A stretch of 64,000 nt of DNA from Thiotrichales bacterium. GTDB taxonomy: Bacteria > Pseudomonadota > Gammaproteobacteria > Francisellales > CACEW01. Every line of letters begins with the position of its first letter. Positions within the stretch are counted from its first letter, which is position 1. Positions 6,401 to 42,890 of the stretch are shown piece by piece. The notes below the pieces were generated by a model. It saw only the letters and a program-made list of their open reading frames with translations. It searched no databases and was not told the DNA's origin. The stretch is from the NCBI GenBank assembly GCA_947478175.1, contig CANJUQ010000008.1:4761-68760 (forward strand), written 5' to 3'. The position numbers and the translations under genes were made by a program.

Positions 6401-9139
6401 ATGACTGACATAACTAATAAGCCCTTAATCTTGATCGACGGATCGTCTTATCTATTTCGCGCTTTCTATGCTCTGCCTAATTTAACCAACGCTACAGGCC
6501 AGCCCACGGGCGCTATTTTGGGCGTGATTAATATGCTCAAAAGTTTATTAACCCAATATGACCCCGAATACATCGCCGTTGTATTTGATACCAAGGGCCC
6601 TAATTTCAGACATCGGCTTTATCCAGACTACAAAGCCAATAGATCCGCAATGCCTGAAGATCTTGCAAGTCAGATAGAACCTATTTTTGAATTTATCGAT
6701 GCCCTAGGTTTGGTTTTAATTAAACAAATGGGTATTGAGGCTGATGATCTCATCGCGACTTTGGCTCATACCGATTTTGCTGAGCATCATGAAATCTTGA
6801 TAGCCACGGGCGATAAAGATTTAGCCCAGCTGGTTAATTCAAAAATATCTTTGATAGACACCATGAAAAACGTCCGACTAGATATCCCTGGCGTCAAAGA
6901 AAAATTCGGCGTCACACCCGAGCAAATCATTGATTACTTAGCCTTGATGGGCGACACCTCCGATAATATTCCTGGTATTCCCGGCGTAGGACCCAAGACA
7001 GCCATCAAATGGATTTCAGAATATTCATCTTTAGATTTGATTATTCAGAACGCGGACAAGATCTCCGGCAAAGTCGGTGAGAATCTCAGAGCTAATCTTT
7101 CCCAGCTAGAACTCGCAAGAAAACTAGTGACCGTCGATTCTCATGTACCTCTAGAATTTGCTGGGGAAAATTTTACCTGGGAAAAATTGCTTAAAAGACC
7201 TGAAGATCAAAATAAATTAGTGACCCTGTGTGAAAAATATGGGTTTAAAACCTGGTTAAAAAATTTAGGGCATGAACCCGGGCGAACACAAGGTTCGCCC
7301 CTACAGGACAATATTCCGGCAAATAATTCAGGCCTCTATGAAACCATTTTGACGCTGGACCAATGGAACCATTGGCAAGAAAAAATTAGCCAATCTACAG
7401 CTCTAGCGATTGATACGGAGACCACCGGACTAGATCCCTTAGAAGATCGCCTCGTCGGCGTATCTTTTTGTGTAGAACCTCACAAAGCTGCCTATTTACC
7501 CCTAGGTCATGATTTACTCGAAGCACCTGACCAACTTTCCATAGATCAAATTCTCCCAGGCTTAAAAAAAATATGCGAAAACCCAAAGCTAGAAAAAATT
7601 GGGCACCATTTAAAATTTGACTGGCAAGTGCTAGCCCAACACGGGATTATTTTTCAGGACCCTTTATTTGATAGCCTGTTAGCGTCCTATGTTTTAGAAG
7701 CTGGCCAAACAAGACATAACTTAGAAACTCTGGCCTTACGCCATCTCAACTTAAAAACAATTTCTTATGAAAGCATCACTGGCAAAGGCGTCAAACAGTT
7801 AACTTTCAATCAAGTCCCCCTAGATCAAGCGACCCAATATTCTGCTGAAGATGCCGATATTACTTTTCAGCTCTATCAAAAATTTAAAAAAACTTTGCAT
7901 GAAAATCCCACGCTCGAAAAATTATTTCGCGAAGAAGAACTTCCTATGCTCAAAGTTTTGGCCCGTATGGAATTACATGGGGTTTTATTAGATGTCCCAG
8001 CTTTACAAAAACAATCTCAAGCACTGGGAAAAACTATTTTAGAAATCGAAAACAATGTCCAAGCTCAACTGGGCATGCATTTTAATCTCAGCTCACCCAA
8101 ACAATTACAGACGGTCTTATTTGAAAAACTTCAGCTTAAACCCGTCAAAAAAACAGCAACAGGTCAGGCATCGACTGACGAAGAAGTTTTGCAAATCTTG
8201 GCTGAGCAACATGAGATTCCAAAATTATTATTAGAACATCGTCATCTTTCTAAACTCAAGACAACTTATACAGATAAGCTCCCACTCATGGTCAACCCCA
8301 AAACCAACCGGGTTCACACGCGATATCATCAAGCCTTCGTTGTCACAGGAAGATTGTCTTCGTCGGATCCCAACTTACAAAATATCCCTATTAAATCCCC
8401 ACAAGGCCGTCAAATTCGCCAAGCGTTTATTGCCCCACCGGGCTCTGTGATTTTGTCTGCAGATTATTCTCAAATAGAACTGCGCATCATGGCCCATTTG
8501 TCTCAAGACCTCAGACTGATTCAAGCCTTTAAAAATGGTGAAGATATTCATCAAGCCACCGCAGCTGAAGTCTTTGGCGTGGAAAATCCCTCTGATGTCA
8601 CTTCTGAACAAAGACGCCGCGCTAAAGCCGTTAATTTTGGATTGATCTATGGCATGAGTGCCTTTGGCTTAGCTAAGCAATTAGGCATCGAAAGATCTCT
8701 CGCTCAACATTACATTGAAACTTATTTTGCAAGATACCCAGGGGTAAAAAAATACATGGAAGAAACCCGAGAACAAGCAAAATCTTTGGGCTATGTCGAA
8801 ACGATTTGGGGCAGAAGATTAGCCTTGCCAGACATCCATTCTAAAAACGCTGTCATGCGACAAGGGGCTGAACGAGCCGCTATCAATGCCCCCATGCAAG
8901 GCTCAGCGGCTGATATTATTAAACGCGCCATGATTCAAATAGATCAAGTCATTGAGACCCAAAAACTTCCCATGGCCATGACATTACAAGTGCACGATGA
9001 ATTAGTTTTTGAGGTTCAAGAACAATCGATTCAACCCATGACCGCATTAATTCGCCACCTTATGACATCGTCCTCATTACTCTCCGTTCCACTCGAAATC
9101 AGTATCAATACGGGGGCCCATTGGGATGAAGCTCATTAA
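6401..9139 (+). CDS. polA: DNA polymerase I
   Basis: Contains a 5' nuclease domain (LILIDGSSYLFRAFYA), a 3'-5' exonuclease domain (DTETTGLD) and polymerase motifs (DYSQIELR, QVHDEL). Start chosen at ATG 6401. The track ORF begins at 6176. Confidence 0.95.
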   Translation: MTDITNKPLILIDGSSYLFRAFYALPNLTNATGQPTGAILGVINMLKSLLTQYDPEYIAVVFDTKGPNFRHRLYPDYKANRSAMPEDLASQIEPIFEFIDALGLVLIKQMGIEADDLIATLAHTDFAEHHEILIATGDKDLAQLVNSKISLIDTMKNVRLDIPGVKEKFGVTPEQIIDYLALMGDTSDNIPGIPGVGPKTAIKWISEYSSLDLIIQNADKISGKVGENLRANLSQLELARKLVTVDSHVPLEFAGENFTWEKLLKRPEDQNKLVTLCEKYGFKTWLKNLGHEPGRTQGSPLQDNIPANNSGLYETILTLDQWNHWQEKISQSTALAIDTETTGLDPLEDRLVGVSFCVEPHKAAYLPLGHDLLEAPDQLSIDQILPGLKKICENPKLEKIGHHLKFDWQVLAQHGIIFQDPLFDSLLASYVLEAGQTRHNLETLALRHLNLKTISYESITGKGVKQLTFNQVPLDQATQYSAEDADITFQLYQKFKKTLHENPTLEKLFREEELPMLKVLARMELHGVLLDVPALQKQSQALGKTILEIENNVQAQLGMHFNLSSPKQLQTVLFEKLQLKPVKKTATGQASTDEEVLQILAEQHEIPKLLLEHRHLSKLKTTYTDKLPLMVNPKTNRVHTRYHQAFVVTGRLSSSDPNLQNIPIKSPQGRQIRQAFIAPPGSVILSADYSQIELRIMAHLSQDLRLIQAFKNGEDIHQATAAEVFGVENPSDVTSEQRRRAKAVNFGLIYGMSAFGLAKQLGIERSLAQHYIETYFARYPGVKKYMEETREQAKSLGYVETIWGRRLALPDIHSKNAVMRQGAERAAINAPMQGSAADIIKRAMIQIDQVIETQKLPMAMTLQVHDELVFEVQEQSIQPMTALIRHLMTSSSLLSVPLEISINTGAHWDEAH
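7280..7307 (+). repeat. REP-like hairpin (family A) inside polA
   Basis: GGGCGAAC-acaag-GTTCGCCC-CTACAGG. Translated in frame as GRTQGSPLQ. Confidence 0.75.
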
Positions 9140-12556: not shown

Positions 12557-13165
12557 ATGAACGCTACTGAACTCAAACAATTGTTAACCCAGACAGCCGT
12601 AGGCATCGTCAAGCAATATTACATGACTGAAAAAAATTCTATGGATGCTGGGAAATACGGTGTTCTCTCTCGATATTTTCGAGGCATTGAGTCAAGCACA
12701 AGACGCCGATTTGGGTTTAGAAAAACGGACTATAACTGCTGGAATGTCACCTGGTCTGGAACCTCAAGAACCCAAGAAGAAAGCTCTTTAGCCAAAACCA
12801 TTCAAAACATTGAGCAGTTAATTTCCGAATGCCATCAGCAAGCTTCCGGACGTGAAAGTAAATTTGCCAAAACACTCAATAACGCCCTGCGACCCCTCAT
12901 AGGCTACCAAACAAAACAAACACTAGAAGTTTTAGAAGATCTAGAAACCAAAAAAACCCAAGCAGAAGCCCCTAGCGCTTTCTCACAAGCACAGCCCCTC
13001 AGCTATGCCCATCCAACCATGAAGTGCAGTTCTGTTGTTCCCAGAGAGCTTTCTCGAAAGACTTCTCATGTAATGTATGTCCCAGTCCCGATATCTAGCA
13101 CTTATCCAGATTCACAAGCCACCCAAGTACAAAGTAGTTCTTTCCATTTTATAGGCGACTGGTAA
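12557..13165 (+). CDS. hypothetical protein (202 aa, no recognisable domain)
   Basis: Long ORF with GGAG 8 nt upstream of the ATG. No motif recognised by eye. Confidence 0.5.
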   Translation: MNATELKQLLTQTAVGIVKQYYMTEKNSMDAGKYGVLSRYFRGIESSTRRRFGFRKTDYNCWNVTWSGTSRTQEESSLAKTIQNIEQLISECHQQASGRESKFAKTLNNALRPLIGYQTKQTLEVLEDLETKKTQAEAPSAFSQAQPLSYAHPTMKCSSVVPRELSRKTSHVMYVPVPISSTYPDSQATQVQSSSFHFIGDW

Positions 13166-13184
13166 AAATCAGGCTGGTAAAAAT

Positions 13185-13958
13185 TTAGACTTTTTCATAC
13201 TCAATCATGACCGGTGCATGGTCCGAAAATCTTTCAGTTTTATAGATACTCACTTGGCGGACTTTGTCTTTTAAATCTGGGGTAATAATTTGGTAATCAA
13301 TTCTCCAACCGACATTGTTTAACCAGGCCTGATAGCTTCTCGCCGTCCACCAGGTGTATTGATCTTTCTCTTGATTGGTCACTCTAAAAGCATCAACCCA
13401 GCCGTCTTGTGTGATTAATTTATCTAACCAAGCGCGCTCTTCTGGCAGGCACCCTGAATTTTTTTGGTTAGCTTTAAAATTTTTAATATCAATTTCTTTG
13501 TGAACAATATTCCAATCGCCACACAAAATATAAGACCGCCCTGAGTCTTTTTGATCTTTTAAAATTTGTCCATACAGATCTAGAAATTTAAACTTGGCAC
13601 CTTGTCTCTCTGGCCCACTGGACCCTGATGGCAAATACAAAGACCCAATAGATAAACTCCCAAAATCACACTGGATATATCGACCTTCTTTGTCAGATAA
13701 ATCAAAACCCAAACCCATTTTTATTTGATCAGGTTTTCTCTTGGTATAAATCGCAACCCCTGAATAGCCTTTTTTTTCAGCACTAAAAAAATATCGAAAA
13801 TAGCCTTTTGGATTAAAAAGTTCGTCACTTAATTGCGCTTCATGAGCCTTAGTCTCTTGTAAACATAAAACATCAGGATCTTCTTTTTGAATCCAATTAA
13901 ATAAGCCTTTCTTAGCCGCAGCTCGAATTCCATTCGCATTCAAAGAAATCACTTTCAT
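13185..13958 (-). CDS. xthA: exodeoxyribonuclease III
   Basis: MKVISLNANGIRAA...VLCLQETK...GDWNIVH...SDHAPV are ExoIII/AP-endonuclease motifs. Start at ATG 13958, with AGGA 8 nt upstream. Confidence 0.9.
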   Translation of the reverse strand: MKVISLNANGIRAAAKKGLFNWIQKEDPDVLCLQETKAHEAQLSDELFNPKGYFRYFFSAEKKGYSGVAIYTKRKPDQIKMGLGFDLSDKEGRYIQCDFGSLSIGSLYLPSGSSGPERQGAKFKFLDLYGQILKDQKDSGRSYILCGDWNIVHKEIDIKNFKANQKNSGCLPEERAWLDKLITQDGWVDAFRVTNQEKDQYTWWTARSYQAWLNNVGWRIDYQIITPDLKDKVRQVSIYKTERFSDHAPVMIEYEKV

Positions 13959-14099
13959 CCACATATTCCTAGTTTCATTTGCCAAAAACGCGCGAGAATA
14001 AAGTGAATTGCGGTCTATGGAAATCTTTTTACTCTTGCTATCCTTGCGCCGCTTTTTAATCCCCTCTCTTTTTATTTATTAACTATTTGGAGATTTTTC

Positions 14100-14564
14100 A
14101 TGAAAAAAATTCTTGCGACGGCTGTTCTCTTAGGTCTAAGCACAATGGCTTCTTTCAGCTTTGCAGATGATGCAACAGCTACAGCAACAACAGCGGCCCC
14201 AGCAGCGTCTAGCATGGCGACACAAGCCCCTGCACCTATCACTGCAGCACCTACAGAAGCAACCCCTTCAACAGCCACCAGCACAGAAGGCGCTTCAAAA
14301 GGTTCTGAGAAAACTTCTGGAAAAACTTCTGAGACCACTAAGCCCCATCATCATCACGCTAAAGCTTGCCCAGCGGGTGAGAAAAAACATGATGGCAAAT
14401 GTGAAAAAACAACCAAACATCATCACACCAAACCTGCAGAAACAACCAAACCGGCTTCTGATAAAAACTCTTCTGCAACCAGCGCGCCTACTACTGGAAC
14501 AGCTGCTAGTTCAACACCTGGATCAACAGGAATGGACTCTGGTTCTATGGCTACGTCTAACTAG
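14100..14564 (+). CDS. secreted low-complexity His/Thr/Ala-rich protein
   Basis: Has a signal peptide MKKILATAVLLGLSTMASFSFA and a GGAG RBS. It carries HHHH and HHH runs around a Cys pair (CPAGEKKHDGKC). Confidence 0.6.
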   Translation: MKKILATAVLLGLSTMASFSFADDATATATTAAPAASSMATQAPAPITAAPTEATPSTATSTEGASKGSEKTSGKTSETTKPHHHHAKACPAGEKKHDGKCEKTTKHHHTKPAETTKPASDKNSSATSAPTTGTAASSTPGSTGMDSGSMATSN

Positions 14565-14573
14565 TGAATGGGC

Positions 14574-15746
14574 CTACATAGCATCGACGGCATTACAAAG
14601 GAGGCTCACAGCCTCCTTTTTTGCAAGTGCCTTCGCCTTCTGACCCATGCTGTCTAATAGTTTTCTATCGTTAGATAAATCTTGAATCACTTGGGCTAAT
14701 TTCTCAGCGGTTAAATCTTTCTGAATTAAACAAATACCTGCACCTTGTTCTGATAACCATTCGGCATTCATACGCTGATGATCATCGACGACATTAGGAT
14801 GAGGAATAAAAATTGCTGGCAATCCAACCGCTGCGACTTCAGAGACGGTCAACGCTCCAGACCTGCAAATAATCAAATCTGCCCACTGATACTCCTGAAC
14901 AATTTCAGAAAAATAGGGGACCACTTGGATTTCATGTCCTGAATTATTTTTCATAAAATTTTTATAATTTTCTTGGGCTATTTCTAAAGTCTTAGGACCC
15001 GCTTGATGATGAATATTCATGGGATTTTTTATTTTCGAAAGGGCTTCGGGAATCAAAGTATTAAAAATCAAAGAGCCTTGACTGCCACCGGTGATTAAAA
15101 TTTTTAAAGGACCCTCACGCTTCCCCCCTCTCTGCCCCTCAACGCATACGCGTTTCGGGTCTGTCTCTCCCGCGAGGGGAGAGACGAAATCCATTCCATC
15201 TACAAATTTTGAACGAACAATTTCCAAAATATCCGCTCTAATCGGATTCCCAATCACTTCACTTTTAAAATGATTAATAGGAAACGCTGAAAATATTCTT
15301 GCCGCCATCTTGGCCAAATAAAAATTCGTCATGCCCAAGATCGCATTTTGCTCATGAATAAATAAAGGAACCCCCAATGATTTCGCCGCCAATCCCGCCG
15401 GCCCGCTGGCAAAGCCTCCAAAAGAAATAACTAGATCTGCTTTTTTATTTTTTAAAATTTTTCGAGCCTGTAATACGGCTCTCATTAATTTAAACGGTAA
15501 TTGGATCCAGCCCAGTAAGCTCTTGTTTCTGACCCCAGCAATTTTTAAAAAATCACTTTCTATTCCAATTCCAGCCTCAGGCACTAATTTTTTTTCTAAC
15601 CCCACTTCACTGCCAATCCAGCTAATTAAATAACCCCGCTGAATTAATTCTTTTGCGATGGCTAACCCTGGGTAAATATGTCCGCCCGTTCCTCCGGCCG
15701 TTATTACAATATTTTTAATATTTTTTAATTTTCTAATTTTGCTCAC
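14574..15746 (-). CDS. murG: UDP-N-acetylglucosamine--lipid I N-acetylglucosamine transferase
   Basis: Has GGTGGHIYPG and GGSQG motifs. At 390 aa it is longer than usual because of an in-frame repeat insertion. Confidence 0.93.
   Translation of the reverse strand: MSKIRKLKNIKNIVITAGGTGGHIYPGLAIAKELIQRGYLISWIGSEVGLEKKLVPEAGIGIESDFLKIAGVRNKSLLGWIQLPFKLMRAVLQARKILKNKKADLVISFGGFASGPAGLAAKSLGVPLFIHEQNAILGMTNFYLAKMAARIFSAFPINHFKSEVIGNPIRADILEIVRSKFVDGMDFVSPLAGETDPKRVCVEGQRGGKREGPLKILITGGSQGSLIFNTLIPEALSKIKNPMNIHHQAGPKTLEIAQENYKNFMKNNSGHEIQVVPYFSEIVQEYQWADLIICRSGALTVSEVAAVGLPAIFIPHPNVVDDHQRMNAEWLSEQGAGICLIQKDLTAEKLAQVIQDLSNDRKLLDSMGQKAKALAKKEAVSLLCNAVDAM
14600..14622 (+). terminator. rho-independent terminator for the 14100-14564 gene, embedded in the murG 3' coding end
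   Basis: GGAGGCT-cac-AGCCTCC followed by T6. Confidence 0.55.
15131..15197 (+). repeat. 67-bp GC-rich element (family B) inside murG
   Basis: TTCCCCCCTCTCTGCCCCTC...GTCTCTCCCGCGAGGGGAGAGACGA. It has the same length and the same termini as the copy at 38851-38917. Confidence 0.75.
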
Positions 15747-17840: not shown

Positions 17841-17864
17841 GCCTAATCTCCCTTTATCGATCAA

Positions 17865-17892
17865 GGGCGGACACGCGGGTCCGCCCCTACAA
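17865..17892 (+). repeat. REP-like hairpin (family A) in the ftsY-hemF spacer
   Basis: GGGCGGAC-acgcgg-GTCCGCCC-CTACAA. Confidence 0.8.
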
Positions 17893-17918: not shown

Positions 17919-18998
17919 TTAAAACAACGCTTCCACAAAATCTTCTGCTTCAAAGACTCTTAGGTCATCTATTTTTTCACCCACACCGATATATCTCACC
18001 GGCAATTTCAAATTCTTAGCCAAGGCAAATAAAATCCCGCCTTTGGCAGTCCCATCTAATTTGGTCAAAACCACCCCTGAGATATTCACAGCTTTCTTAA
18101 ATTCAATAGCCTGAATCAACGCGTTTTGTCCCGTTGTCGCATCTAAAACTAACAAAGTTTCATGGGGGGCCGTAGGGTCAAATTTTTGCATTACTCGCAT
18201 AATTTTATTGAGCTCGTTCATCAGGTTAATTTTGTTATGCAATCGTCCTGCCGTATCTGCAATGACAACATCGATCCCTTTGGCTCTAGCTTTTGTCATA
18301 GCGTCAAAGATTACAGACGCACTGTCTGCCCCATGTTCTTGAGATTGCGAAACCACTTCGATTTGATTTCTCTCACCCCAGACTTGTAATTGCTCGACGG
18401 CAGCCGCTCTAAAAGTATCTCCTGCTGCGAGTAACACTTTCTTGCCGTCTAACTGAAATCTTTTGGCAAGTTTCCCAACAGTCGTTGTTTTTCCAGCGCC
18501 ATTAATACCGACCATTAAGATCACATAAGGTTTTTTATCAGGATTTATAACCAACGGAATTTCGACCGGTTTTAATAAGTTATTTAACTTATTTTTTAAT
18601 TCTTCTATCAGGGCCTCTGGATTTTTTAATATTTTTCTTTCTGACTGCTCCGTTAAGCTGTCAATTATTTCTGTCGTTGCCTCAACGCCGACATCGGCTG
18701 ATAACAAGATTGTTTCAATCTCTTCGAGTAATTCTTGGTCAATTTCTTTTTTACCCAAAATTACTCTTGAAAGAGAGGCTCCGACGGCTTGTCTTGTTTT
18801 AGTTAAGCCTTCTTTAAGTCGCGTAAACCAAGAACCTGTTTTTTCTGTTTGATCTGTTTGATCTGTTTGATCTGTTTGATCTGTTTGATCTTCAGGTTTC
18901 TCACCTTCTGGCATTTTGTCTTTACTTTTACCGACTAATCGTGAAAATAGCCCCACTTTGGCAATACCCCTGTCCCTGAATCCAAAAAAGCGGGGCAT
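17919..18998 (-). CDS. ftsY: signal recognition particle receptor FtsY
   Basis: SRP GTPase motifs GINGAGKTTT, DTAGR and TKLDG, plus an acidic N-terminal domain. Confidence 0.93.
   Translation of the reverse strand: MPRFFGFRDRGIAKVGLFSRLVGKSKDKMPEGEKPEDQTDQTDQTDQTDQTEKTGSWFTRLKEGLTKTRQAVGASLSRVILGKKEIDQELLEEIETILLSADVGVEATTEIIDSLTEQSERKILKNPEALIEELKNKLNNLLKPVEIPLVINPDKKPYVILMVGINGAGKTTTVGKLAKRFQLDGKKVLLAAGDTFRAAAVEQLQVWGERNQIEVVSQSQEHGADSASVIFDAMTKARAKGIDVVIADTAGRLHNKINLMNELNKIMRVMQKFDPTAPHETLLVLDATTGQNALIQAIEFKKAVNISGVVLTKLDGTAKGGILFALAKNLKLPVRYIGVGEKIDDLRVFEAEDFVEALF
18845..18889. repeat. 9-bp tandem repeat x5 in ftsY (CTGTTTGAT)
   Basis: Five perfect copies, read directly. Encodes the DQT repeat run in the acidic N-domain. 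Confidence 0.9.
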
Positions 18999-23511: not shown

Positions 23512-23538
23512 GGGCGAATACAAGATTCGCCCCTACAA
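23512..23538 (+). repeat. REP-like hairpin (family A)
   Basis: GGGCGAAT-acaag-ATTCGCCC-CTACAA, in the convergent spacer before minE. Confidence 0.75.
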
Positions 23539-32159: not shown

Positions 32160-32345
32160 CACCTGCCGCCTGCGGGGTTCGATTGTTGAGATGATCTCGA
32201 GCTAATACTTTAAAACCTCGGGGTTCAGCCAAGTTTCAGGAGTGCATGCCAGCTTTAAGCCGGAAGCCCGAAGAAACTTTTAGAATCCCACCTAGTCCTC
32301 CCAGTTCGAGGATACGAAACATAGGCCTGGCGGGCGGCACTTCTT
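32160..32345 (+). ncRNA. ssrS: 6S RNA
   Basis: About 185-nt non-coding stretch immediately upstream of the 5-formyl-THF cyclo-ligase gene, which is the conserved ssrS-ygfA synteny. The 5' UGCCGCCUGC can pair with the 3' GCGGGCGGCA. The internal GAGUGCAUGC...GAAGCC and the 3' GGCGGCAC resemble E. coli 6S RNA. A possible promoter is TTGACT (32129) with TAGCTT (32152). The ends are approximate. Confidence 0.7.
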
Positions 32346-33789: not shown

Positions 33790-35913
33790 TTACAATACTG
33801 ATGGGTACACACCTGAAGCTGATACTGGGCTAACTGGTGCTGGTACTGGTGTTGAACTTCTTCTGTCTGGAGGAATGCCTAAGCCTTCTTCGATGTTCGT
33901 TCCATCTTGAAGTTCGAAATACTCATCACCTGATGGCGTGCGGAATGTAGTGCTGCCAGAGAGCACTCCCGATGCTGCACGGTGTTGCTCTTGAGGTACA
34001 ACGCCTACACCGCCGTATTGGCCTCCGTTTCCGAAAGATTGGAGTCTATGCCGACGATTGAAACATGCGGCTATTCTCGTACAAGGCTTAGATTCTTGCG
34101 GAAGATCAGTGCTTTGATAATTAGCTCGGAACCAAAGTGCTAAACACAAACTTCCTGCAACGGCATTTCCAACAATACCCCCTATCGCGACGCCATAAGG
34201 ACTGTGCATTACCTTGACGCCCAGCTCATAAGAAAGAAGGAGTCCGACCAGCCCCATTCCAAACAGGCTGGCGAACATGGGATTAAGGGTTACTTTAGTT
34301 AACCCCTGATACGCACTCGCCGCCCCGTAACGAAGACCATCGAAGACCTGTCCTACAACCACTAAACTCATAATGGGCAGCAACCAATCATGAACAAAAG
34401 GACTGCTCAAGGCTTCAGCGCCTAAAAATAATTGAGCCACTGGGTTAGCAATAAAAGGCGTGATGCCACACCAAGCAACTGCCCAGATCAACGAAAGCAT
34501 CATGCTGATGTTCCCCAGACGATACGCAGCAGAAAAATCTTTAGCCCCTACCATAGTTCCTATTAATTGAACCCCGGCATTCCCAAAACTCTGCGTCACG
34601 GTAAAAACCAAATTACTCACTGTACTCACAGCACTTGCGACTGTGACAGCGTCTTTGTTAATCCAACTATAAAAACCGGTACCAAAAAAAGCAGAAGACC
34701 ATTCAACGCCTAAGCGTCCAATCAAAGGAAGGCCTGTGCATAAAAACTCTTTCATCATGGAACCTGGAGGGAGTTTGTAACTTAAATCTTCCCGCTCCTT
34801 GGAAATTAAAAATTGACGAAGCTCATCAACCTCTGAAGAGGACAACATCAGTGTTTTAAAATCAGCGATGGGGAGTACGTTATTCCCTTCTTGTACGTCA
34901 ACATGAATGCTACTCACTCCCATGTTCACTGGATTCACTGGGCTCTCTGAGTCCACTTCCTGCTCCATTATCTCGGAAAAAATGCTTTTTAGGCTCTTTG
35001 TTTTTAAATCCTGTTGTGATTCCCTCAGAAAGTCCTGCAAGGCCGAAAAATCCCTTGATTCAAATTTTGAAAATGGGAATTTTAAAAATTCACTCCTTAA
35101 TTTACGACTTTTAGCGTCTTCAAGTTTAAATCGAAAAAGACCTGAGAGTTTTATTTCCCCAACATTTAAGTCCTTCCCAGAGACTTTTAAAACGGGTGGG
35201 GTTTTCTTAAATGCAATAAGCAGACTAAAAGCAATCGCGTTAAACCAAATACGAACTGCCCCTGCAATCGCTAACCCTTCAAGGCCTAGCTCAGGGAGGC
35301 CCATTTTGCCCATGCTCAAACCATAACTAAAAAACCACACCAAAGGCACGCTGCTAAGATTAAGCGCCGTCACCCAACCCCTTTGGTTAAACAAATTCAA
35401 ATAAGGCCGAACTACTGCCCCATAAGCAAAAGCAGGCACACTGACAAGGTACCAACGCAAAAATTTTTGAGTCATTGAAGTAATGAGCTTATTTTCATGA
35501 AAAATATTTTCCAGGGCAAATCCTGAAAAATAAAAAGCTGCCACGGTGATGGCAGCAGAAACAAAGGCGTAATAAAGTCCTTGCCGCCCCATACGAAAAA
35601 CGGCCTCTCGGGCCGTTTTCTTATCTTTTTCTGCTTGGGCCGCATGGATGGCCCCTAGCTTCTCGCCCATCAGGCCGTATAAGGCATTCATCGGCGCTGA
35701 CAAAGCAGTCTGCGATAACTTATAAGTCATCACCCACTGATTGGCCGTTAACTCGTCCGGTCCCAAATGAGCCATATAGATCTGAGTTATTATGTCAGTC
35801 GCTGTTGACGCCAACATGCCCGCTACAATAGGCATTGCAGTCTTGATAACTCCACAGGTTTCCCCCCATCTGGAACTTTGTAAAACGGTTTGAGTAACGC
35901 TAGCCCCTGACAT
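33790..35913 (-). CDS. MATE/MOP-superfamily-like polytopic membrane protein with central insertion and C-terminal tail (paralog 1)
   Basis: 12-TM layout. The N-terminal pattern IKTAMPIVAGMLASTATDIITQIYMAHLGPDELTANQ resembles MATE transporters. AGGAGA lies before the ATG. Confidence 0.68.
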   Translation of the reverse strand: MSGASVTQTVLQSSRWGETCGVIKTAMPIVAGMLASTATDIITQIYMAHLGPDELTANQWVMTYKLSQTALSAPMNALYGLMGEKLGAIHAAQAEKDKKTAREAVFRMGRQGLYYAFVSAAITVAAFYFSGFALENIFHENKLITSMTQKFLRWYLVSVPAFAYGAVVRPYLNLFNQRGWVTALNLSSVPLVWFFSYGLSMGKMGLPELGLEGLAIAGAVRIWFNAIAFSLLIAFKKTPPVLKVSGKDLNVGEIKLSGLFRFKLEDAKSRKLRSEFLKFPFSKFESRDFSALQDFLRESQQDLKTKSLKSIFSEIMEQEVDSESPVNPVNMGVSSIHVDVQEGNNVLPIADFKTLMLSSSEVDELRQFLISKEREDLSYKLPPGSMMKEFLCTGLPLIGRLGVEWSSAFFGTGFYSWINKDAVTVASAVSTVSNLVFTVTQSFGNAGVQLIGTMVGAKDFSAAYRLGNISMMLSLIWAVAWCGITPFIANPVAQLFLGAEALSSPFVHDWLLPIMSLVVVGQVFDGLRYGAASAYQGLTKVTLNPMFASLFGMGLVGLLLSYELGVKVMHSPYGVAIGGIVGNAVAGSLCLALWFRANYQSTDLPQESKPCTRIAACFNRRHRLQSFGNGGQYGGVGVVPQEQHRAASGVLSGSTTFRTPSGDEYFELQDGTNIEEGLGIPPDRRSSTPVPAPVSPVSASGVYPSVL

Positions 35914-36043
35914 ACGACTTTTCTCCTGTTATTTTTTAACCCATTAGAAAATACCGCGCAAAGTACTATAAAAACATCAAAGAAAGAACGCTAAAAGATA
36001 ACAACTAAAAAATAATAAATTTAAATCAAGCGTGTTTTATGTT

Positions 36044-36378
36044 TTTATTTTTTCACATACGGGACATAGCCCGGTTGCCAAATTTTGGCATCAATCGCCG
36101 CAATGACTTCTTGTTCAAACATCGGTTTCGTTAAACCTGATCTCACTGCTTCCAAAGCCACATCTATCGCCACTTGGCATGAGACAGACCTAATTTGATC
36201 TAACGGCGGTAGTAAATTTTCTTCTGTGAATAATCCTGGTTGGCCTGAAACACCTAAATAAAACGGTCGGTTTTAAATTTTTAACCACATCGTAAAAATT
36301 AATGACCCCAGGCTGACGCAATGTCCAATTTTGATAAACCGCTTTTTTCTGAGCGAATGGAGCTTGAAAAGACAACAG
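36044..36378 (-). pseudogene. malic enzyme (maeA) 3' fragment with internal deletion and frameshift
   Basis: Nucleotide-level match to 38960-39147 plus 39469-39618 of the intact maeA. Track ORF 36190-36375 reads SFQAPFAQKKAVYQNW..INFYDV, matching maeA SFQAPFAQKKSAYQNW..INFYDV, and then loses frame. Confidence 0.85.
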
Positions 36379-36428
36379 AATATCTTGCAGTGCTCAGGAA
36401 AACCAGAACAACTGGCCTAACAACTAAC

Positions 36429-38198
36429 CTAACAGACACTGTGAACTGTTACAGGGCTAACTGGCACGGGTGTTGAACTGCTTCTGTTTGCAGGAGGAGT
36501 GCTCAAGCCTTCTTCGATGCTCGTTCCATCTTGAAGTTTGAAATAATCCTTACCTGATGGCGTGCGGAATGTAGTGCTGCCAGAGAGCACCCCCGATGCC
36601 TCACGATGTTCTTCTGAAGGTACAACGCCTTCGCCTACACCGCCGTATTGGCCTCCGTTTCCGAAAGGTTGGAGCCTATGCCGACGATTGAAACATGCGG
36701 CTATTTTCGTACAAGGCTTAGATTCTTGCGGAAGATCAGTGCTTTGATAATTAGCTCGGAACCAAATGCCCAAACATAAACTCCCCGCAATAAAATTCCC
36801 CAAGATGGCTCCCGTCGCAACACCCTCAGGACTCTTCATCGCCTTCACACCCAAGCCATAAGAAAGACTCAGCCCAACCAAGCCCATTCCAAATAAACTA
36901 GAAAGCATGGGCTGAATAGTCTTTTTTGTGAGGCCTTGATAAGCACTCGCGGCAGCGTAGCGAAGCCCATCAAAGACTTGTGCCACAACCGTCAAGCTCA
37001 TGATGGATGGCAACCAAGCGAGTACCAAAGGATTATTTACAGCGTCAGCCCCTAAAAATAACTTAGACACTGGATTAGCAATAAAAGGCGTGATAACACA
37101 CCAAAGCGTCGCCCAAATAAGCGGAAGAATAATACTGATATTCCCCAGACGATAAGCTGCTTCAAAATTTTTGGCCCCCACCATGGTTCCCAATATTTGA
37201 ACTCCAGCATTCCCTAAACTCTGTGTCACGGTAAAGATCAAGTTACTGAAAATGCTGACAGCACTCGCCACGGTCAGAGCCTCTGAGCTAATCAAATTAT
37301 AAAAAGCACTTCCAAAAAAAGCAGAGGACCACTCCACCCCCAACCGTACACTTAAAGGCAGCCCTGTTTGTAACAGCTCTTTCATCATGTCCCAGGAGCC
37401 TGCTAATTTAAATTTAAACAGCCCTGAAAGCTTTATTTCTCCGATGTTTAGCTCTTTCCCAGAAACAGTTAAAACCGCTGGTGTTGTTTTACATAAAATA
37501 AGCGCTGTAGAAGCAATCGCGTTAAACCAAATACGACTAATCGCTGCCAACGCAAGTCCTTCAATGCCTAGTTTAGGAAACCCAAACCCACCCAGCCCGA
37601 ACCCATAACCCAAGAGGACCATCAAAGGCACACTGGCATAATTAAAACTTGAGACCCAGCTTCTTTGGTTCAACACGCATAGATAAGGCCTGACCGCCGA
37701 ACCGTAACTAAAGGCCAAAACACTCGGGAGATACCAACGTAAAAATCTTTGAGCCATTCCAGTAATAATGGCGTTTTCATGAAATAGCCTTCCCAACACA
37801 AACCCTGAAAAGTAGAAAGCTGTTGCCACGATCGAGGCAGAAGCTAAGGCGTAATACAGGCCTTGTTGCCCCATAAGAAAAACGGCCTCGCGGGCCGTTT
37901 GTCTATCTTCTTCTGTGGTGGCTGCATGAATGGCCCCCAATTTATTACCTAACAAGCCATATAAGGCGTTCATAGGCGCTGATAGCGCCGTCTGGAATAG
38001 TTTGTAAGTCATGGCCCACTGATTGGCGGTTAATTCATCTTTACCCAATCGCGCCATAAAAATCTGAGTCGCCATGTCAGCCGCTGTGGATGCCAACATG
38101 CTTGCCATAATGGGTCCTGCCGTTTTTATCACCTCACAAACTTCTGTTTTCTGTGCCTTGATTTTCAAGATGGTTTGAGTAAAACAAGTCCCTGACAT
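36429..38198 (-). CDS. MATE/MOP-superfamily-like polytopic membrane protein with C-terminal tail (paralog 2)
   Basis: Collinear with 33790-35913. Start placed at ATG 38198 (MSGTCFTQ), aligned with the paralog 1 start and preceded by AGGAGA. Confidence 0.68.
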   Translation of the reverse strand: MSGTCFTQTILKIKAQKTEVCEVIKTAGPIMASMLASTAADMATQIFMARLGKDELTANQWAMTYKLFQTALSAPMNALYGLLGNKLGAIHAATTEEDRQTAREAVFLMGQQGLYYALASASIVATAFYFSGFVLGRLFHENAIITGMAQRFLRWYLPSVLAFSYGSAVRPYLCVLNQRSWVSSFNYASVPLMVLLGYGFGLGGFGFPKLGIEGLALAAISRIWFNAIASTALILCKTTPAVLTVSGKELNIGEIKLSGLFKFKLAGSWDMMKELLQTGLPLSVRLGVEWSSAFFGSAFYNLISSEALTVASAVSIFSNLIFTVTQSLGNAGVQILGTMVGAKNFEAAYRLGNISIILPLIWATLWCVITPFIANPVSKLFLGADAVNNPLVLAWLPSIMSLTVVAQVFDGLRYAAASAYQGLTKKTIQPMLSSLFGMGLVGLSLSYGLGVKAMKSPEGVATGAILGNFIAGSLCLGIWFRANYQSTDLPQESKPCTKIAACFNRRHRLQPFGNGGQYGGVGEGVVPSEEHREASGVLSGSTTFRTPSGKDYFKLQDGTSIEEGLSTPPANRSSSTPVPVSPVTVHSVC

Positions 38199-38311
38199 AT
38201 GACTTTTCTCCTGTGATTTCTTAGCCAATTAAAAAATACAGCGCAAAGTACTATAAAAATATTAAAGAAAGAACGCTAAAAAATAACAGCTAAAAAAATA
38301 ATAAATTTAAA

Positions 38312-38836
38312 TCAAGCAGGCTCTGTCAGGTCAAATCTCTTACGAATAAAATAAATCAGCCCAGACAAGACCAAAGCAATCGCGACCCCAACACATGATT
38401 CTAGAAATCGCGAAGAGGCATTCACCCAGGGACTGATATAAATACCTCCCACCTGACTCACCGCGAAAATAATGGCCACTGTGATACAGCTCAGACGATA
38501 GAGCGATAGTTTAAAGAACGCACAAATCATGACTGATAAAAGCATGCCAATAAAAAAAGATTCGTCGTGATAGCCCATGAAAGAAAAAACAATCCAAGAA
38601 ATCAAAACGCCTATCAGAGTCCCCAAAACACGGTTTTTTGCATTGTTTAACATTTCTCGATAATTAACATGTCCAATAATCACCGCTGAGATCATGGCCC
38701 AGAGCCCACCAATCAAAGGGCTTCCAGCATGTAAATAATGAGAAATCCAAGCGCCCAATAAAAAACCAATCAAAGCTGTGACACTGGCTTCAAGCGCTGT
38801 GAGCAATTTAAAACGACGAATGATTTTTTTGAGCAT
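38312..38836 (-). CDS. FUSC/aromatic-acid-exporter-like small membrane protein
   Basis: About 174 aa with 5-6 TM helices. Start at ATG 38836 (MLKKIIRR). The upstream part of the track ORF is just the translated family B repeat. Confidence 0.55.
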   Translation of the reverse strand: MLKKIIRRFKLLTALEASVTALIGFLLGAWISHYLHAGSPLIGGLWAMISAVIIGHVNYREMLNNAKNRVLGTLIGVLISWIVFSFMGYHDESFFIGMLLSVMICAFFKLSLYRLSCITVAIIFAVSQVGGIYISPWVNASSRFLESCVGVAIALVLSGLIYFIRKRFDLTEPA

Positions 38837-38850
38837 TTTATTTTTCCTAT

Positions 38851-38917
38851 TTCCCCCCTCTCTGTCCCTACAGGCTAGGGCCTTTCGGGCCTGTCTCTCC
38901 CGCAGGGGGAGAGACGA
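38851..38917 (+). repeat. 67-bp GC-rich element (family B), intergenic copy
   Basis: TTCCCCCCTCTCTGTCCCTA...GTCTCTCCCGCAGGGGGAGAGACGA. The termini are identical to the murG copy and the central ~13 nt differ. Confidence 0.75.
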
Positions 38918-38959
38918 TTCAAGCAATCAGCAGGGCCTAAAATTCGCCCCATTATTCTT

Positions 38960-40672
38960 TTATCTCTGTTTTTTCACATATGGGACATAATTGGGCCACC
39001 AAATTTTGGCATCAATCGCTGCAATGACTTCTTGTTCAGACATCGGTTTCGTTAAACCTGATCTCACTGCTTCCAAAGCAACATCGATAGCCACCTGGCG
39101 TGAGACAGACCGAATTTGATCTAACGGCGGTAGTAGATTTTCTTCTGAATTATTTTTAGCAGGCGATAAAGCTGCAAGCGCTTTCGCCGCGACCATAAAC
39201 ATGCTGTCCGTCACATGCTTGGCTTTGACCGCAATAATCCCCAAACCCATCCCCGGGAAAATATAAGAATTATTGGTCTGATCAATATGCCTAGATTTGC
39301 CATTAAACATCACATCAGGAAAGGGACTTCCCGTTCCCATAATCACACGACCGTCTGTCCACCGACACAAATCCTCAGGTTTTCCTTCACTGCGAGAAGT
39401 GGGATTAGAGAGTGGGAAAATAATGGGCCGTTGGGTCTTAGACGCCATGAGTTTCACGATTTCTTCTGTGAATAATCCTGGTTGGCCTGAGACGCCCAAC
39501 AAGACCGTTGATTTTAAATTTTTCATGACATCGTAAAAATTAATTGTCCCAGGTTTTTGTAAGACCCAATTTTGATAAGCCGATTTTTTTTGAGCAAATG
39601 GGGCCTGAAAAGACAAAAGACCTGACATTTCTTCAGTTAATAACCCATGAGCATCAATAATAAAAAATCGCGCACGAGCCTCAGATTCAGACAAACCTGC
39701 AGCCATCATGGCTTGGGCCATTAAATTACTAATACCGCAACCGGCCGAACCTCCACCGACAACGACAATCAATTGATCTTGAATCTTACTTCCAATGGAT
39801 TGAACCGCGGCCAAAAGCGTCCCTGTTGCCACAGCAGCTGTCCCCTGAATATCGTCATTGAATGTACAAAGTTGATCTCGGTATTTAGCCAAAATAGGGT
39901 TCGCATTTTGTTGAGCGAAATCTTCCCACTGCAATAAAACATGCGGGAATCTTTTTTTAATCGCTTTAACAAATAGGTCCACAAAATCTTCATATTCTTT
40001 GCCGCGGACACGCTCATGACGCCAACCCATATAAAGCGGATCTTTCAATAAATCCTGATTATTGGTCCCCGTATCAAGCAAAATAGGGAGTGTCTTAGCG
40101 GGATGAATTCCGGCACACGCGGTATAAAGCGCAAGTTTTCCAATGGGGATTCCCATTCCTCCCGCCCCTTGATCGCCCAAGCCTAGAATTCTTTCACCAT
40201 CTGAAACGACGATGGCTTCCACCGCATCAAAACGAATATGGCTAAGAATTTCATCCAGATTGTCTTTGCAAACAGGGGTCAAATATAAGCCCCGAGGACG
40301 GCGATAAATATGACTAAAATTTTGGCAGGCCTCACCAACAACTGGCGTATAGACAATCGGCAGCATCTCTTGAATATGGTCAACTAACAGGCTGTAAAAC
40401 AAAGTTTCGTTGGAGTCCTGTAATTCACGCAGATAAATATATTTTTCAATCGGCTTAGATTTGTTTTGGAAAGCTTGATAAGAGCGTTTCTTTTGAGTTT
40501 CTAAATCACTCACACCAAACGCTAACAGGCCATGTAAACCAAAAGCATGACGCTCATCCTCAGGAAAAGCTGAGCCTTTGTTTAAAATTGGATTGCGAAC
40601 CAGATCAAAATCAGATTGATTTACTTCGTAATAGACATGCCCTACAGCGTCTCTTTTTTCCTGATGATGCAT
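38960..40672 (-). CDS. maeA: NAD-dependent malic enzyme
   Basis: 570 aa with VYTPVVGEAC, GLGDQGAGGMGIPIGK, GGSAGCGI and FPLSNPT motifs. Confidence 0.93.
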   Translation of the reverse strand: MHHQEKRDAVGHVYYEVNQSDFDLVRNPILNKGSAFPEDERHAFGLHGLLAFGVSDLETQKKRSYQAFQNKSKPIEKYIYLRELQDSNETLFYSLLVDHIQEMLPIVYTPVVGEACQNFSHIYRRPRGLYLTPVCKDNLDEILSHIRFDAVEAIVVSDGERILGLGDQGAGGMGIPIGKLALYTACAGIHPAKTLPILLDTGTNNQDLLKDPLYMGWRHERVRGKEYEDFVDLFVKAIKKRFPHVLLQWEDFAQQNANPILAKYRDQLCTFNDDIQGTAAVATGTLLAAVQSIGSKIQDQLIVVVGGGSAGCGISNLMAQAMMAAGLSESEARARFFIIDAHGLLTEEMSGLLSFQAPFAQKKSAYQNWVLQKPGTINFYDVMKNLKSTVLLGVSGQPGLFTEEIVKLMASKTQRPIIFPLSNPTSRSEGKPEDLCRWTDGRVIMGTGSPFPDVMFNGKSRHIDQTNNSYIFPGMGLGIIAVKAKHVTDSMFMVAAKALAALSPAKNNSEENLLPPLDQIRSVSRQVAIDVALEAVRSGLTKPMSEQEVIAAIDAKIWWPNYVPYVKKQR

Positions 40673-42466: not shown

Positions 42467-42890
42467 AATGGCACTGACTTAAGGTCGGCAAGGCTTATCT
42501 TGCTTGAATTCCCCTCTCCAATATTGGAGAGGGCAAGCCACTGAAAGTGGCGCGGGAGAGGGATTTAAAAAACATCCCACTATTGCAAGTTCAGATAAAT
42601 AGCTTCAAGAACAGCTGCTTTTTCTTTAAATACTTCATGATTACGTCATGATTTCAAAATCTAATGACGTGAAATCCCAAAGACTCTAAATGCTTTGTTC
42701 GATTTGAATCTCTTTTGGCATGTGATTCTTCCAGATGTTGACTGCCATCGAGTTCGATAATCAGATATTTTTAATGTGTTATTTATTTTTAAATCCCTCT
42801 CCCGCGCCACTTTCAGTGGCTTGCCCTCTCCAATATTGGAGAGGGGAATTCAAGCAAGATAAGCCTTACCGACCTTAAGTCAGTGCCATT
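42467..42890. mobile_element. foldback / MITE-like element with 105-bp terminal inverted repeats
   Basis: 42467-42571 is the reverse complement of 42786-42890 with a single mismatch. The arms carry nested hairpins (CCCTCTCC-aatatt-GGAGAGGG and GCCAC-tgaaa-GTGGC). Confidence 0.65.
42579..42770 (-). pseudogene. DUF559 (Vsr-like endonuclease) C-terminal remnant
   Basis: The reverse frame reads KYLIIELDGSQHLEESHAKRDSNRTKHLESLGFHVIRF then TGA then NHDVIMKYLKKK. A 1-nt shift restores AAVLEAIYLNLQ. The N-terminal half is missing. Confidence 0.6.

Follow-up and report, generated by a model that had tools for sequence, protein, structure and literature searches.

An in-frame insertion in murG of an uncultured gammaproteobacterium: a probable BoxC/PIT-class repeat with a possible link to DUF559 endonucleases

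The murG insertion and its intergenic twin

The 64,000-nucleotide (nt) stretch of DNA analysed here, called the window throughout, comes from contig CANJUQ010000008.1 (positions 4,761 to 68,760; assembly GCA_947478175.1) of a low-GC gammaproteobacterium, and it holds two copies of a GC-rich repeat, one in frame within murG and the other in intergenic DNA (Table 1). The two 67-nt stretches, 15121-15187 and 38851-38917, align without gaps at 82% identity. A preliminary description made from the letters alone had paired them as exact 67-mers; it placed the intergenic twin correctly, but its coordinates for the murG copy, 15131-15197, had slipped by 10 nt. The hairpin it drew, with a 4-nt loop and a 10-nt arm, is in fact a 9-bp stem with a 5-nt loop, GTCTCTCCC-N5-GGGAGAGAC, and the central block of about 13 nt in which it saw the copies differ is a second hairpin, variable in sequence with its pairing kept. 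The conserved 26-mer TGTCTCTCCCGCNNGGGGAGAGACGA around the first hairpin occurs exactly twice in the window, with no occurrence expected (100 shuffles), and a search of the whole window with the family profile (nhmmer --max) returned no third copy. Conservation across the family extends the murG copy from 15187 to about 15191; this 3' extension, GAAATC, is kept in many copies.

Table 1. Coordinates of the murG insertion, its twin and the related foldback element in the window
Feature	Position	Strand	Remarks
murG, 390 aa	14574..15746	-	carries the insertion in the linker between its domains
murG copy of the repeat	15121..15191	-	minus is the sense strand of murG and also the G-rich one; encodes MurG residues 186-209
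hairpin 1, murG copy	15163..15185		GTCTCTCCC, 5-nt loop GCGAG, GGGAGAGAC
hairpin 2 (linker), murG copy	15135..15160		outer stem CCC/GGG, inner stem ACGC/GCGT
third block, murG copy	15123..15134		CCCCCCTCTCTG on plus, CAGAGAGGGGGG on minus; mirror of purine arm GGGGAGAGA
intergenic twin	38851..38917	-	third block 38853-38864, hairpin 2 38865-38890, hairpin 1 38893-38915
sister-family element	42467..42890		two 105-nt arms (42467-42571, 42786-42890), 99% complementary
DUF559 (PF04480) C-terminal remnant, 38 aa	42657..42770	-	KYLIIELDGSQH...GFHVIRF-stop, between the foldback arms

Translated in frame, the element reads ...D FVSPLAGETDPKRVCVEGQRGG K... in the window MurG. Escherichia coli MurG is shorter at this point, as the preliminary description had stated: residues 177-204 of the window protein (28 residues) face residues 171-174 (four residues) of chain 1F0K, and the insertion site falls between residues 170 and 175 of the E. 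coli protein. In 13/13 MurG orthologs about 21-26 residues are missing immediately ahead of the GGSQG loop; the window protein has 24-26 residues that neither these orthologs nor E. coli MurG possess. Among the 13 are the three closest, which are 61-66% identical over the alignment and keep the order ftsW-murG-small gene, and a codon alignment with these three relatives at the DNA level gives 25-26 extra codons in the window murG. The suggestion that the insert loops out of the hinge is borne out by an AlphaFold2 model, which places it between helix 171-176 and strand 214-219; the model has a mean predicted local distance difference test score (pLDDT) of 85 and a predicted template modelling score (pTM) of 0.84, and pLDDT falls below 50 solely at residues 182-205 and the N-terminal four. 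The insert is thus predicted to be a disordered loop of about 24 residues between two Rossmann-like domains that leaves the invariant catalytic columns intact, and every alignment-invariant column is present in the window protein. Because murG is essential in bacteria where tested, the window MurG is likely to be functional. One ortholog (P0007) has a different insert at another site (...ERHPRAGGDLEKPMQELDSRLRGNDENK...), which looks like a translated copy of another GC-rich repeat family.

It could be argued that the murG segment is a native, lineage-specific linker whose likeness to 38851-38917 reflects coincidence or gene conversion, and the MurG linker region is indeed poorly conserved in both length and sequence. 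This explanation is refuted by the common 26-mer, for which no chance match is expected, by the presence of the same unit at dozens of unrelated genes and intergenic sites, and by the MurG orthologs that do without it; we consider its probability negligible. By its own terms the preliminary description would have been refuted had the genome held no other copies and had related MurG proteins shown a linker of equal length; instead, copies are found in relatives and the orthologs lack the segment.

The twin lies, as first described, between maeA (38960-40672, minus strand) and a FUSC_2-like gene for a small membrane protein. It does falsely extend the open reading frame (ORF) at 38312-38926, the first 30 codons of which derive from the element; the plausible start is the Met at 38836. 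This part of the window contains a diverged tandem segmental duplication (33814-36379 versus 36442-39620, 73-90% identity). The first duplication copy lacks a 651-nt segment that corresponds to 38318-38968 of the second and comprises the FUSC_2-like gene and the intergenic repeat copy, and it retains mere fragments of the 3' end of maeA.

The three-block unit and its mirror register

The consensus of the unit on its G-rich strand is yTGAyn-TCG-TCTCTCCCC-N5-GGGAGAGAC-AG-(hairpin 2)-CAGAGAGGGGG. The blocks follow one another in a fixed order: the pyrimidine block TCTCTCCCC, a 5-nt loop, the purine complement GGGGAGAGA of the first block, CAG, a hairpin free to vary in sequence, CAG again, and the third block AGAGAGGGG. 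Hairpin 1 is invariant in 36/37 aligned copies and has a single mismatch in the remaining one. Hairpin 2 is its opposite in this respect, with 36 distinct sequences among the 37 copies, all of which fold (mean z = -3.2), and it covaries; one column pair (37/56), for example, is CG in 11 copies, UA in 11 and AU in 8. The position that closes hairpin 2 is A/G in 12 of the 37 units, G/A in 12, Watson-Crick in 12, G/G in one and A/A in none. The A/G and G/A states share the same inner hairpin sequence, which points to selection for a purine-purine pair on the G-rich strand.

The 3' tail AGAGAGGGG is neither a copy nor a complement of the purine arm GGGGAGAGA: it is its mirror image, and the two give 9/9 purine-motif triads in both window copies. 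Exactly AGAGAGGG is found in 61/94 hairpins that have the GGGAGAGA arm and score at least 85% allowed triads. Beyond this one arm, we collected 363 pyrimidine-first hairpins from all loci, 297 of them with a purine arm that is not mirror-symmetric in itself. A perfect third block in mirror register occurs within 70 nt of 219 of these 297, against 36 when the arm is reversed and a mean of 27 (maximum 38) when arms are permuted. Many of these hairpin instances are related copies, which makes it safer to count arm types; the rule is true for 22/24 arm types, such as GGGAGAAGG with GGATGAGGG, GGGAGGGG with GGGGAGGG and GGGGGAAGG with GGATGGGGG. The linker between purine arm and third block is 17-32 nt long and contains a hairpin in the window family; among all surveyed units it is 0-4 nt in 76 and 10-59 nt in about 200.

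Copying mechanisms give direct or inverted repeats, not mirror repeats, and the mirror relation therefore points to selection on a fold that requires it. We propose that a single strand of the unit can fold into two hairpins, the two that ViennaRNA predicts (triplexes lie outside its model), and that the tail could also fold back on hairpin 1 as a purine-motif triplex, following the G·G-C and A·A-T rule that the E. coli repeat TM_ECO obeys in vitro. Such a triplex may form in vivo as well. The pyrimidine-motif alternative, a triplex on the C-rich strand, was set aside in favour of the purine motif on the G-rich strand, as it would need runs of protonated cytosine. The covariation of the mirror register in over 20 sequence types supplies comparative evidence for selection on a three-block, triplex-competent fold, which biophysics on one E. 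coli sequence could not have reached.

The closest known relatives in architecture are the BoxC, PIT and TM_ECO repeats of E. coli and other Proteobacteria. TM_ECO has the pattern CCCTCNCCC-N3-6-GGGNGAGGG-N3-GGGNGAGGG and is present in 23 copies in E. coli K-12, always intergenic, with no strand bias and with five inverted A+B pairs; its purine-motif triplex was seen in vitro by circular dichroism and nuclear magnetic resonance, and no association with mobile elements was found (Holder et al. 2015, PMC4666352, which cites the earlier studies of BoxC and those of PIT by Hoyne and Maher). Like these repeats, the window family has the three-block order on the G-rich strand with the second purine block in mirror register, and it follows the same class II triad rule (C-G·G and T-A·A/T). 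It shares with TM_ECO a first loop within 3-6 nt (here 5), a perfect 9-bp stem and a second G-rich block that is triad-competent with the first (at most one mismatch allowed). Both are GC-rich and multicopy, without strand bias or known function, and both frequently form inverted pairs of two sub-types with spacers of about 16-17 nt, as in three doublets with a 17-nt spacer (loci L002, L017 and L054) in the related genome CAMCUU01 described below. The differences are also clear. All 37 copies have the block TCTCTCCCC rather than CCCTCNCCC, the host is an uncultured gammaproteobacterium of low GC content, and the 3-nt second loop is replaced by a linker bearing a hairpin. Published searches for ITxF and PIT motifs allow three blocks of 6-15 nt with both loops at 1-6 nt and 0-10 nt, respectively (PMC4666352), and would for this reason miss the window family.

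The unit also resembles whalefall-1, described as a noncoding RNA known solely from a whale-fall metagenome (Weinberg et al. 2010, PMC2864571), which has a hairpin UCUCUCC/GGAGAGA, CAG, a variable hairpin and a G-rich tail ...GGGUGAGG; compared by hand, its consensus tail fits the mirror rule with one mismatch. This raises the alternative that the unit is a functional structured RNA, either a relative of the whalefall-1 small RNA or a cis-acting element of mRNA that would serve, for instance, in transcript stabilisation or termination. Both window copies align to the full whalefall-1 model (Rfam RF01762, positions 1-56/56) on the transcribed strand and lie on the sense strand of neighbouring genes, and hairpin 2 covaries. 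The murG copy, however, scores 18.6 bits and the twin 14.1 bits, far under the gathering score of 37, and at gathering score the window and 18 further loci yielded nothing but 6S RNA. The units lie in genes in both orientations (eight genic copies in each), which points to a DNA repeat, and they show no usable orientation bias relative to coding strand: the G-rich strand is the majority coding strand in 18/35 copies and the locally G-rich strand in 12/35 (p = 0.09). Moreover, the mirror rule suits a purine-motif triplex, a structure that RNA does not adopt according to Holder et al. (PMC4666352). We therefore regard a structured RNA as decidedly improbable.

Copies in relatives and in housekeeping genes

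We scanned 185,579 species genomes for GTCTCTCCC-N5-GGGAGAGAC and obtained at least 97 loci, so that the dispersed family foreseen in the preliminary description does exist outside the window. At least 29 of the loci belong to one metagenome-assembled genome (MAG), CAMCUU01, in which 214 kb contain 33 complete units of 48-70 nt, most commonly 59 nt; a second relative (L100/L101) adds three more units in 18 kb. Taken together, these two uncultured gammaproteobacteria have at least 40 copies in addition to those of the window. These relatives are about 70-73% identical to the window in nucleotide sequence, and are thus related to the window's genome and distinct from it. CAMCUU01 is itself 99% identical at the nucleotide level to the contig (L098) that encodes one of the MurG orthologs (P0004). 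Its public label, 'Francisella tularensis subsp. holarctica', looks wrong for a genome with 39% GC whose MurG-type genes share only some 42-45% identity with those of named gammaproteobacteria.

Nearly half of the complete units (16/35, 46%) are inside long ORFs, with at least 30 codons on each side, whereas TM_ECO is always intergenic. Pfam matches across the insert or on both sides of it identify real host genes, namely those for RibF, the PolA 3'-5' exonuclease, NagZ, WecB, RsmA, RarA, FolC, PyrD, LipB, a UbiH-like oxidoreductase, the linker of an E2 acyltransferase and a UvrD-like helicase. The unit has no stop codon in the frames used, and copies whose length is a multiple of three can therefore survive within genes when they fall in surface loops. 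Sites also differ between relatives. Among the MurG genes compared, the murG site is filled in the window alone; of two polA sites, CAMCUU01 has a unit at one, which is empty in L100, and L100 alone has a unit at the other. A unit of a sister family, CCCCCTCCCTC - hairpin GGAC/GTCC - CCTCTCCC/GGGAGAGG, lies within the PriA frame of the second relative (14450-14498 of L100; gene 12813-14939).

In their behaviour the units recall the Rickettsia palindromic elements (RPEs), which are about 100-150 bp long and confined to Rickettsia (PMC10969869; PMC5896051). Both are small palindromes found in frame in many unrelated housekeeping genes, tolerated as surface loops, with about half of the copies genic; Coxiella QMITE1 is similar to a lesser degree (PMC10969869; PMC5896051). 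The RPEs lack the mirror (triplex) block, and the likeness is one of behaviour, with no sequence relation expected. The window family is a second clear case of the RPE phenomenon. It also means that repeats of the triplex type (BoxC/PIT) extend beyond intergenic DNA, since in one lineage about half of the sites are in essential or housekeeping genes, and it provides natural loop insertions that mark tolerated sites in MurG, PolA, RibF, RsmA and other proteins.

The units are repeated, are present or absent in a lineage-specific manner, reside in frame in many genes, and covary both in hairpin 2 and in mirror register. The explanation that best accounts for this, to which we assign a probability of about 0.8, is that the 67-mers are a dispersed, noncoding, GC-rich repeat of the BoxC/PIT/intrastrand-triplex class, a selfish and non-autonomous DNA that is tolerated in genes. 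The unit would have spread after the species diverged, in a single lineage of freshwater gammaproteobacteria that are uncultured and low in GC.

DUF559 genes between inverted units

The preliminary description had pointed to a resemblance between the repeat and the arms of a foldback near 42.5 kb, and the resemblance is that of a sister family with the same architecture. Each foldback arm has a hairpin 1 (CCCTCTCC/GGAGAGGG), a hairpin 2 (GCCACT/AGTGGC) and a tail (GGGAGAGGGA), and the tails face inward. The 214-nt spacer between the arms codes for the C-terminal 38 residues of a DUF559 protein (jackhmmer E = 1.4e-12; Pfam E = 1.7e-10, profile positions 55-88 of 109). A protein database search with this 38-residue remnant, which is a very short query, gave no candidates after padding.

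An all-against-all comparison of proteins encoded near the units singled out the same family: DUF559 is the sole small nuclease- or transposase-like family that adjoins units in more than two taxa, and these belong to different phyla. At five loci besides the window, a DUF559 gene or remnant, confirmed as Pfam PF04480, lies between two inverted units with tails inward. As an independent sample, a metagenome scan with a DUF559 alignment gave 80 loci from one DUF559 clade, 52-68% identical to the query. A complete three-block unit is present within 300 nt upstream of DUF559 in 54/67 loci and within the same distance downstream in 41/71; it stands on at least one side in 55/58, and on both sides, inverted with tails inward, in 26/58. 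Control windows 700-1300 nt away contain a unit in 7/170 cases (4%). In E. coli K-12, the interval that separates ycjD, a DUF559 gene, from fabI holds TM_ECO number 9, which lies 168 nt downstream of ycjD. A profile of DUF559 matches PDB 3HRL and, weakly (E = 0.015), the homing endonuclease I-Bth0305I (PDB 3R3P). A search of Rfam by E-value with 20 DUF559 loci returned only spurious microRNA matches. Our literature search found no paper linking DUF559 to repeats, and the association is apparently new.

Direct repeats of 13-21 nt, all sharing the core GCGCGATGA, border five whole DUF559 elements of the metagenome sample (L112, L120, L114, L116 and L118); in some elements these repeats are 17-21 nt long. 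Because each direct repeat duplicates the ...AR-stop end of the upstream gene, this suggests that the elements inserted site-specifically. Flanking direct repeats are also what an ordinary miniature inverted-repeat transposable element (MITE), a deletion derivative of a DDE-transposase insertion sequence that has terminal inverted repeats and target-site duplications, might leave, and both the doublets, with inverted arms of 60 nt, and the 42.5-kb element, with its 105-nt arms, have a MITE-like form. The single units, in contrast, have no terminal inverted repeats and no detectable target-site duplication, no transposase gene is near any unit in the sampled loci, and a BLAST search of plasmid and phage collections with the 71-mer (low-complexity filter on) gave no match. 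A MITE origin thus appears very improbable.

A second group of mobile repeats to be weighed is that of the repetitive extragenic palindromes (REPs), or their inverted doublets (REPINs), mobilised by a REP-associated tyrosine transposase (RAYT) of the Y1 HUH type. The parallel is real: a small nuclease or transposase gene stands between two inverted structured repeats, which are otherwise scattered as singlets and doublets, the unit is a short dispersed palindrome, the three CAMCUU01 doublets are REPIN-like, and canonical GTAG-type REPs occur in the same genomes. But the units have no GTAG or other REP-type 5' tetranucleotide, and their three-block mirror architecture is foreign to REPs. The bracketed gene, both at the six loci and in the 55/58 metagenome loci, is DUF559, of the PD-(D/E)xK class with a Vsr fold, and not a Y1 transposase; as noted above, no other such family recurs beside the units. 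We consider mobilisation by a RAYT improbable.

We propose instead that single units of the triplex class are the solo ends of elements in which two inverted units enclose the gene of a DUF559 (Vsr-fold) nuclease. The full element would read (hairpin 1 - hairpin 2 - G tail) - DUF559 - (C tail - hairpin 2 - hairpin 1), and a decay series may lead from it through the 42.5-kb foldback and gene-less inverted doublets to a solo end such as the murG 67-mer; the foldback fits the place of a decayed DUF559 element intermediate between full elements and gene-less doublets. The nuclease might act on the structured ends and thereby cause their spread, recognising a single strand folded as a hairpin or triplex, in a manner akin to the action of RAYTs on REPs. 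That DUF559 mobilises the units is possible, though we would give it somewhat less than an even chance, and we hold the same tentative view of the more general proposal that BoxC/PIT/triplex-motif repeats, which have been recognised in E. coli for decades, are the ends of a widespread selfish element whose only gene encodes a DUF559 (YcjD-like, Vsr-fold) endonuclease. If true, the 'whalefall-1 RNA' of Rfam would be this DNA repeat. The close association with the units makes DUF559 a concrete enzyme candidate for repeats whose means of spreading has lacked an explanation ever since they were first described in E. coli, and the units a candidate substrate for DUF559, a large protein family of unknown function.

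Several observations weigh against this account of the units. Holder et al. detected no TM_ECO triplex in vivo (PMC4666352), and while the window family obeys the block rule, its linker of 17-32 nt exceeds the ITxF and PIT loop limits. The selfishness of the unit is read from its distribution, and many copies come from one MAG and are hence non-independent. Solo copies showed neither a target-site duplication nor a clean boundary when filled and empty sites in murG and polA were compared: the boundaries are blurred, with 25-26 codons gained in murG and a net 16 in polA, where the difference between the filled and the empty site is 48 nt rather than the length of one element. As to DUF559, no intact gene was found in the DNA of the lineage available for comparison, and E. 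coli strains without ycjD (O157:H7 and strain AST240) still hold 12-16 copies of TM_ECO.

The gene ycjD is present in 3378/5426 complete E. coli genomes, and TM_ECO ranges from 1 to 29 copies. We rejected a simple present-day dependence of TM_ECO copy number on ycjD, since the ycjD-negative strains retain so many. Where strains with and without ycjD are compared (L184, K-12 1346000-1354000; L185, O157:H7), their homology starts again about 40 nt away from TM_ECO number 9, toward fabI. The interval from ycjD to this motif also holds a degenerate duplicate of the 3' end of ycjD.

The window also contains a separate, canonical REP family on the plus strand, at 7280-7305, 17860-17891, 23512-23537, 51150-51181 and 51667-51698. 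These REPs consist of a hairpin, GGGCGGAC/GTCCGCCC or GGGCGAAY/RTTCGCCC, followed by CCTAC, so that the other strand reads GTAG and then the hairpin. The family is common to the window, CAMCUU01 and the other relatives, where the same variants are found (CAMCUU01 and L098-L101), some of them inside long ORFs (L063, L076), and it is absent from the other loci. A 6S RNA gene (RF00013) at 32164-32340 on the plus strand, matched over its full length with 82.5 bits, is the sole gathering-score Rfam match in the window. Finally, 18836-18898 is a tandem array of about six copies of a 9-nt unit, (CTGTTTGAT)n.

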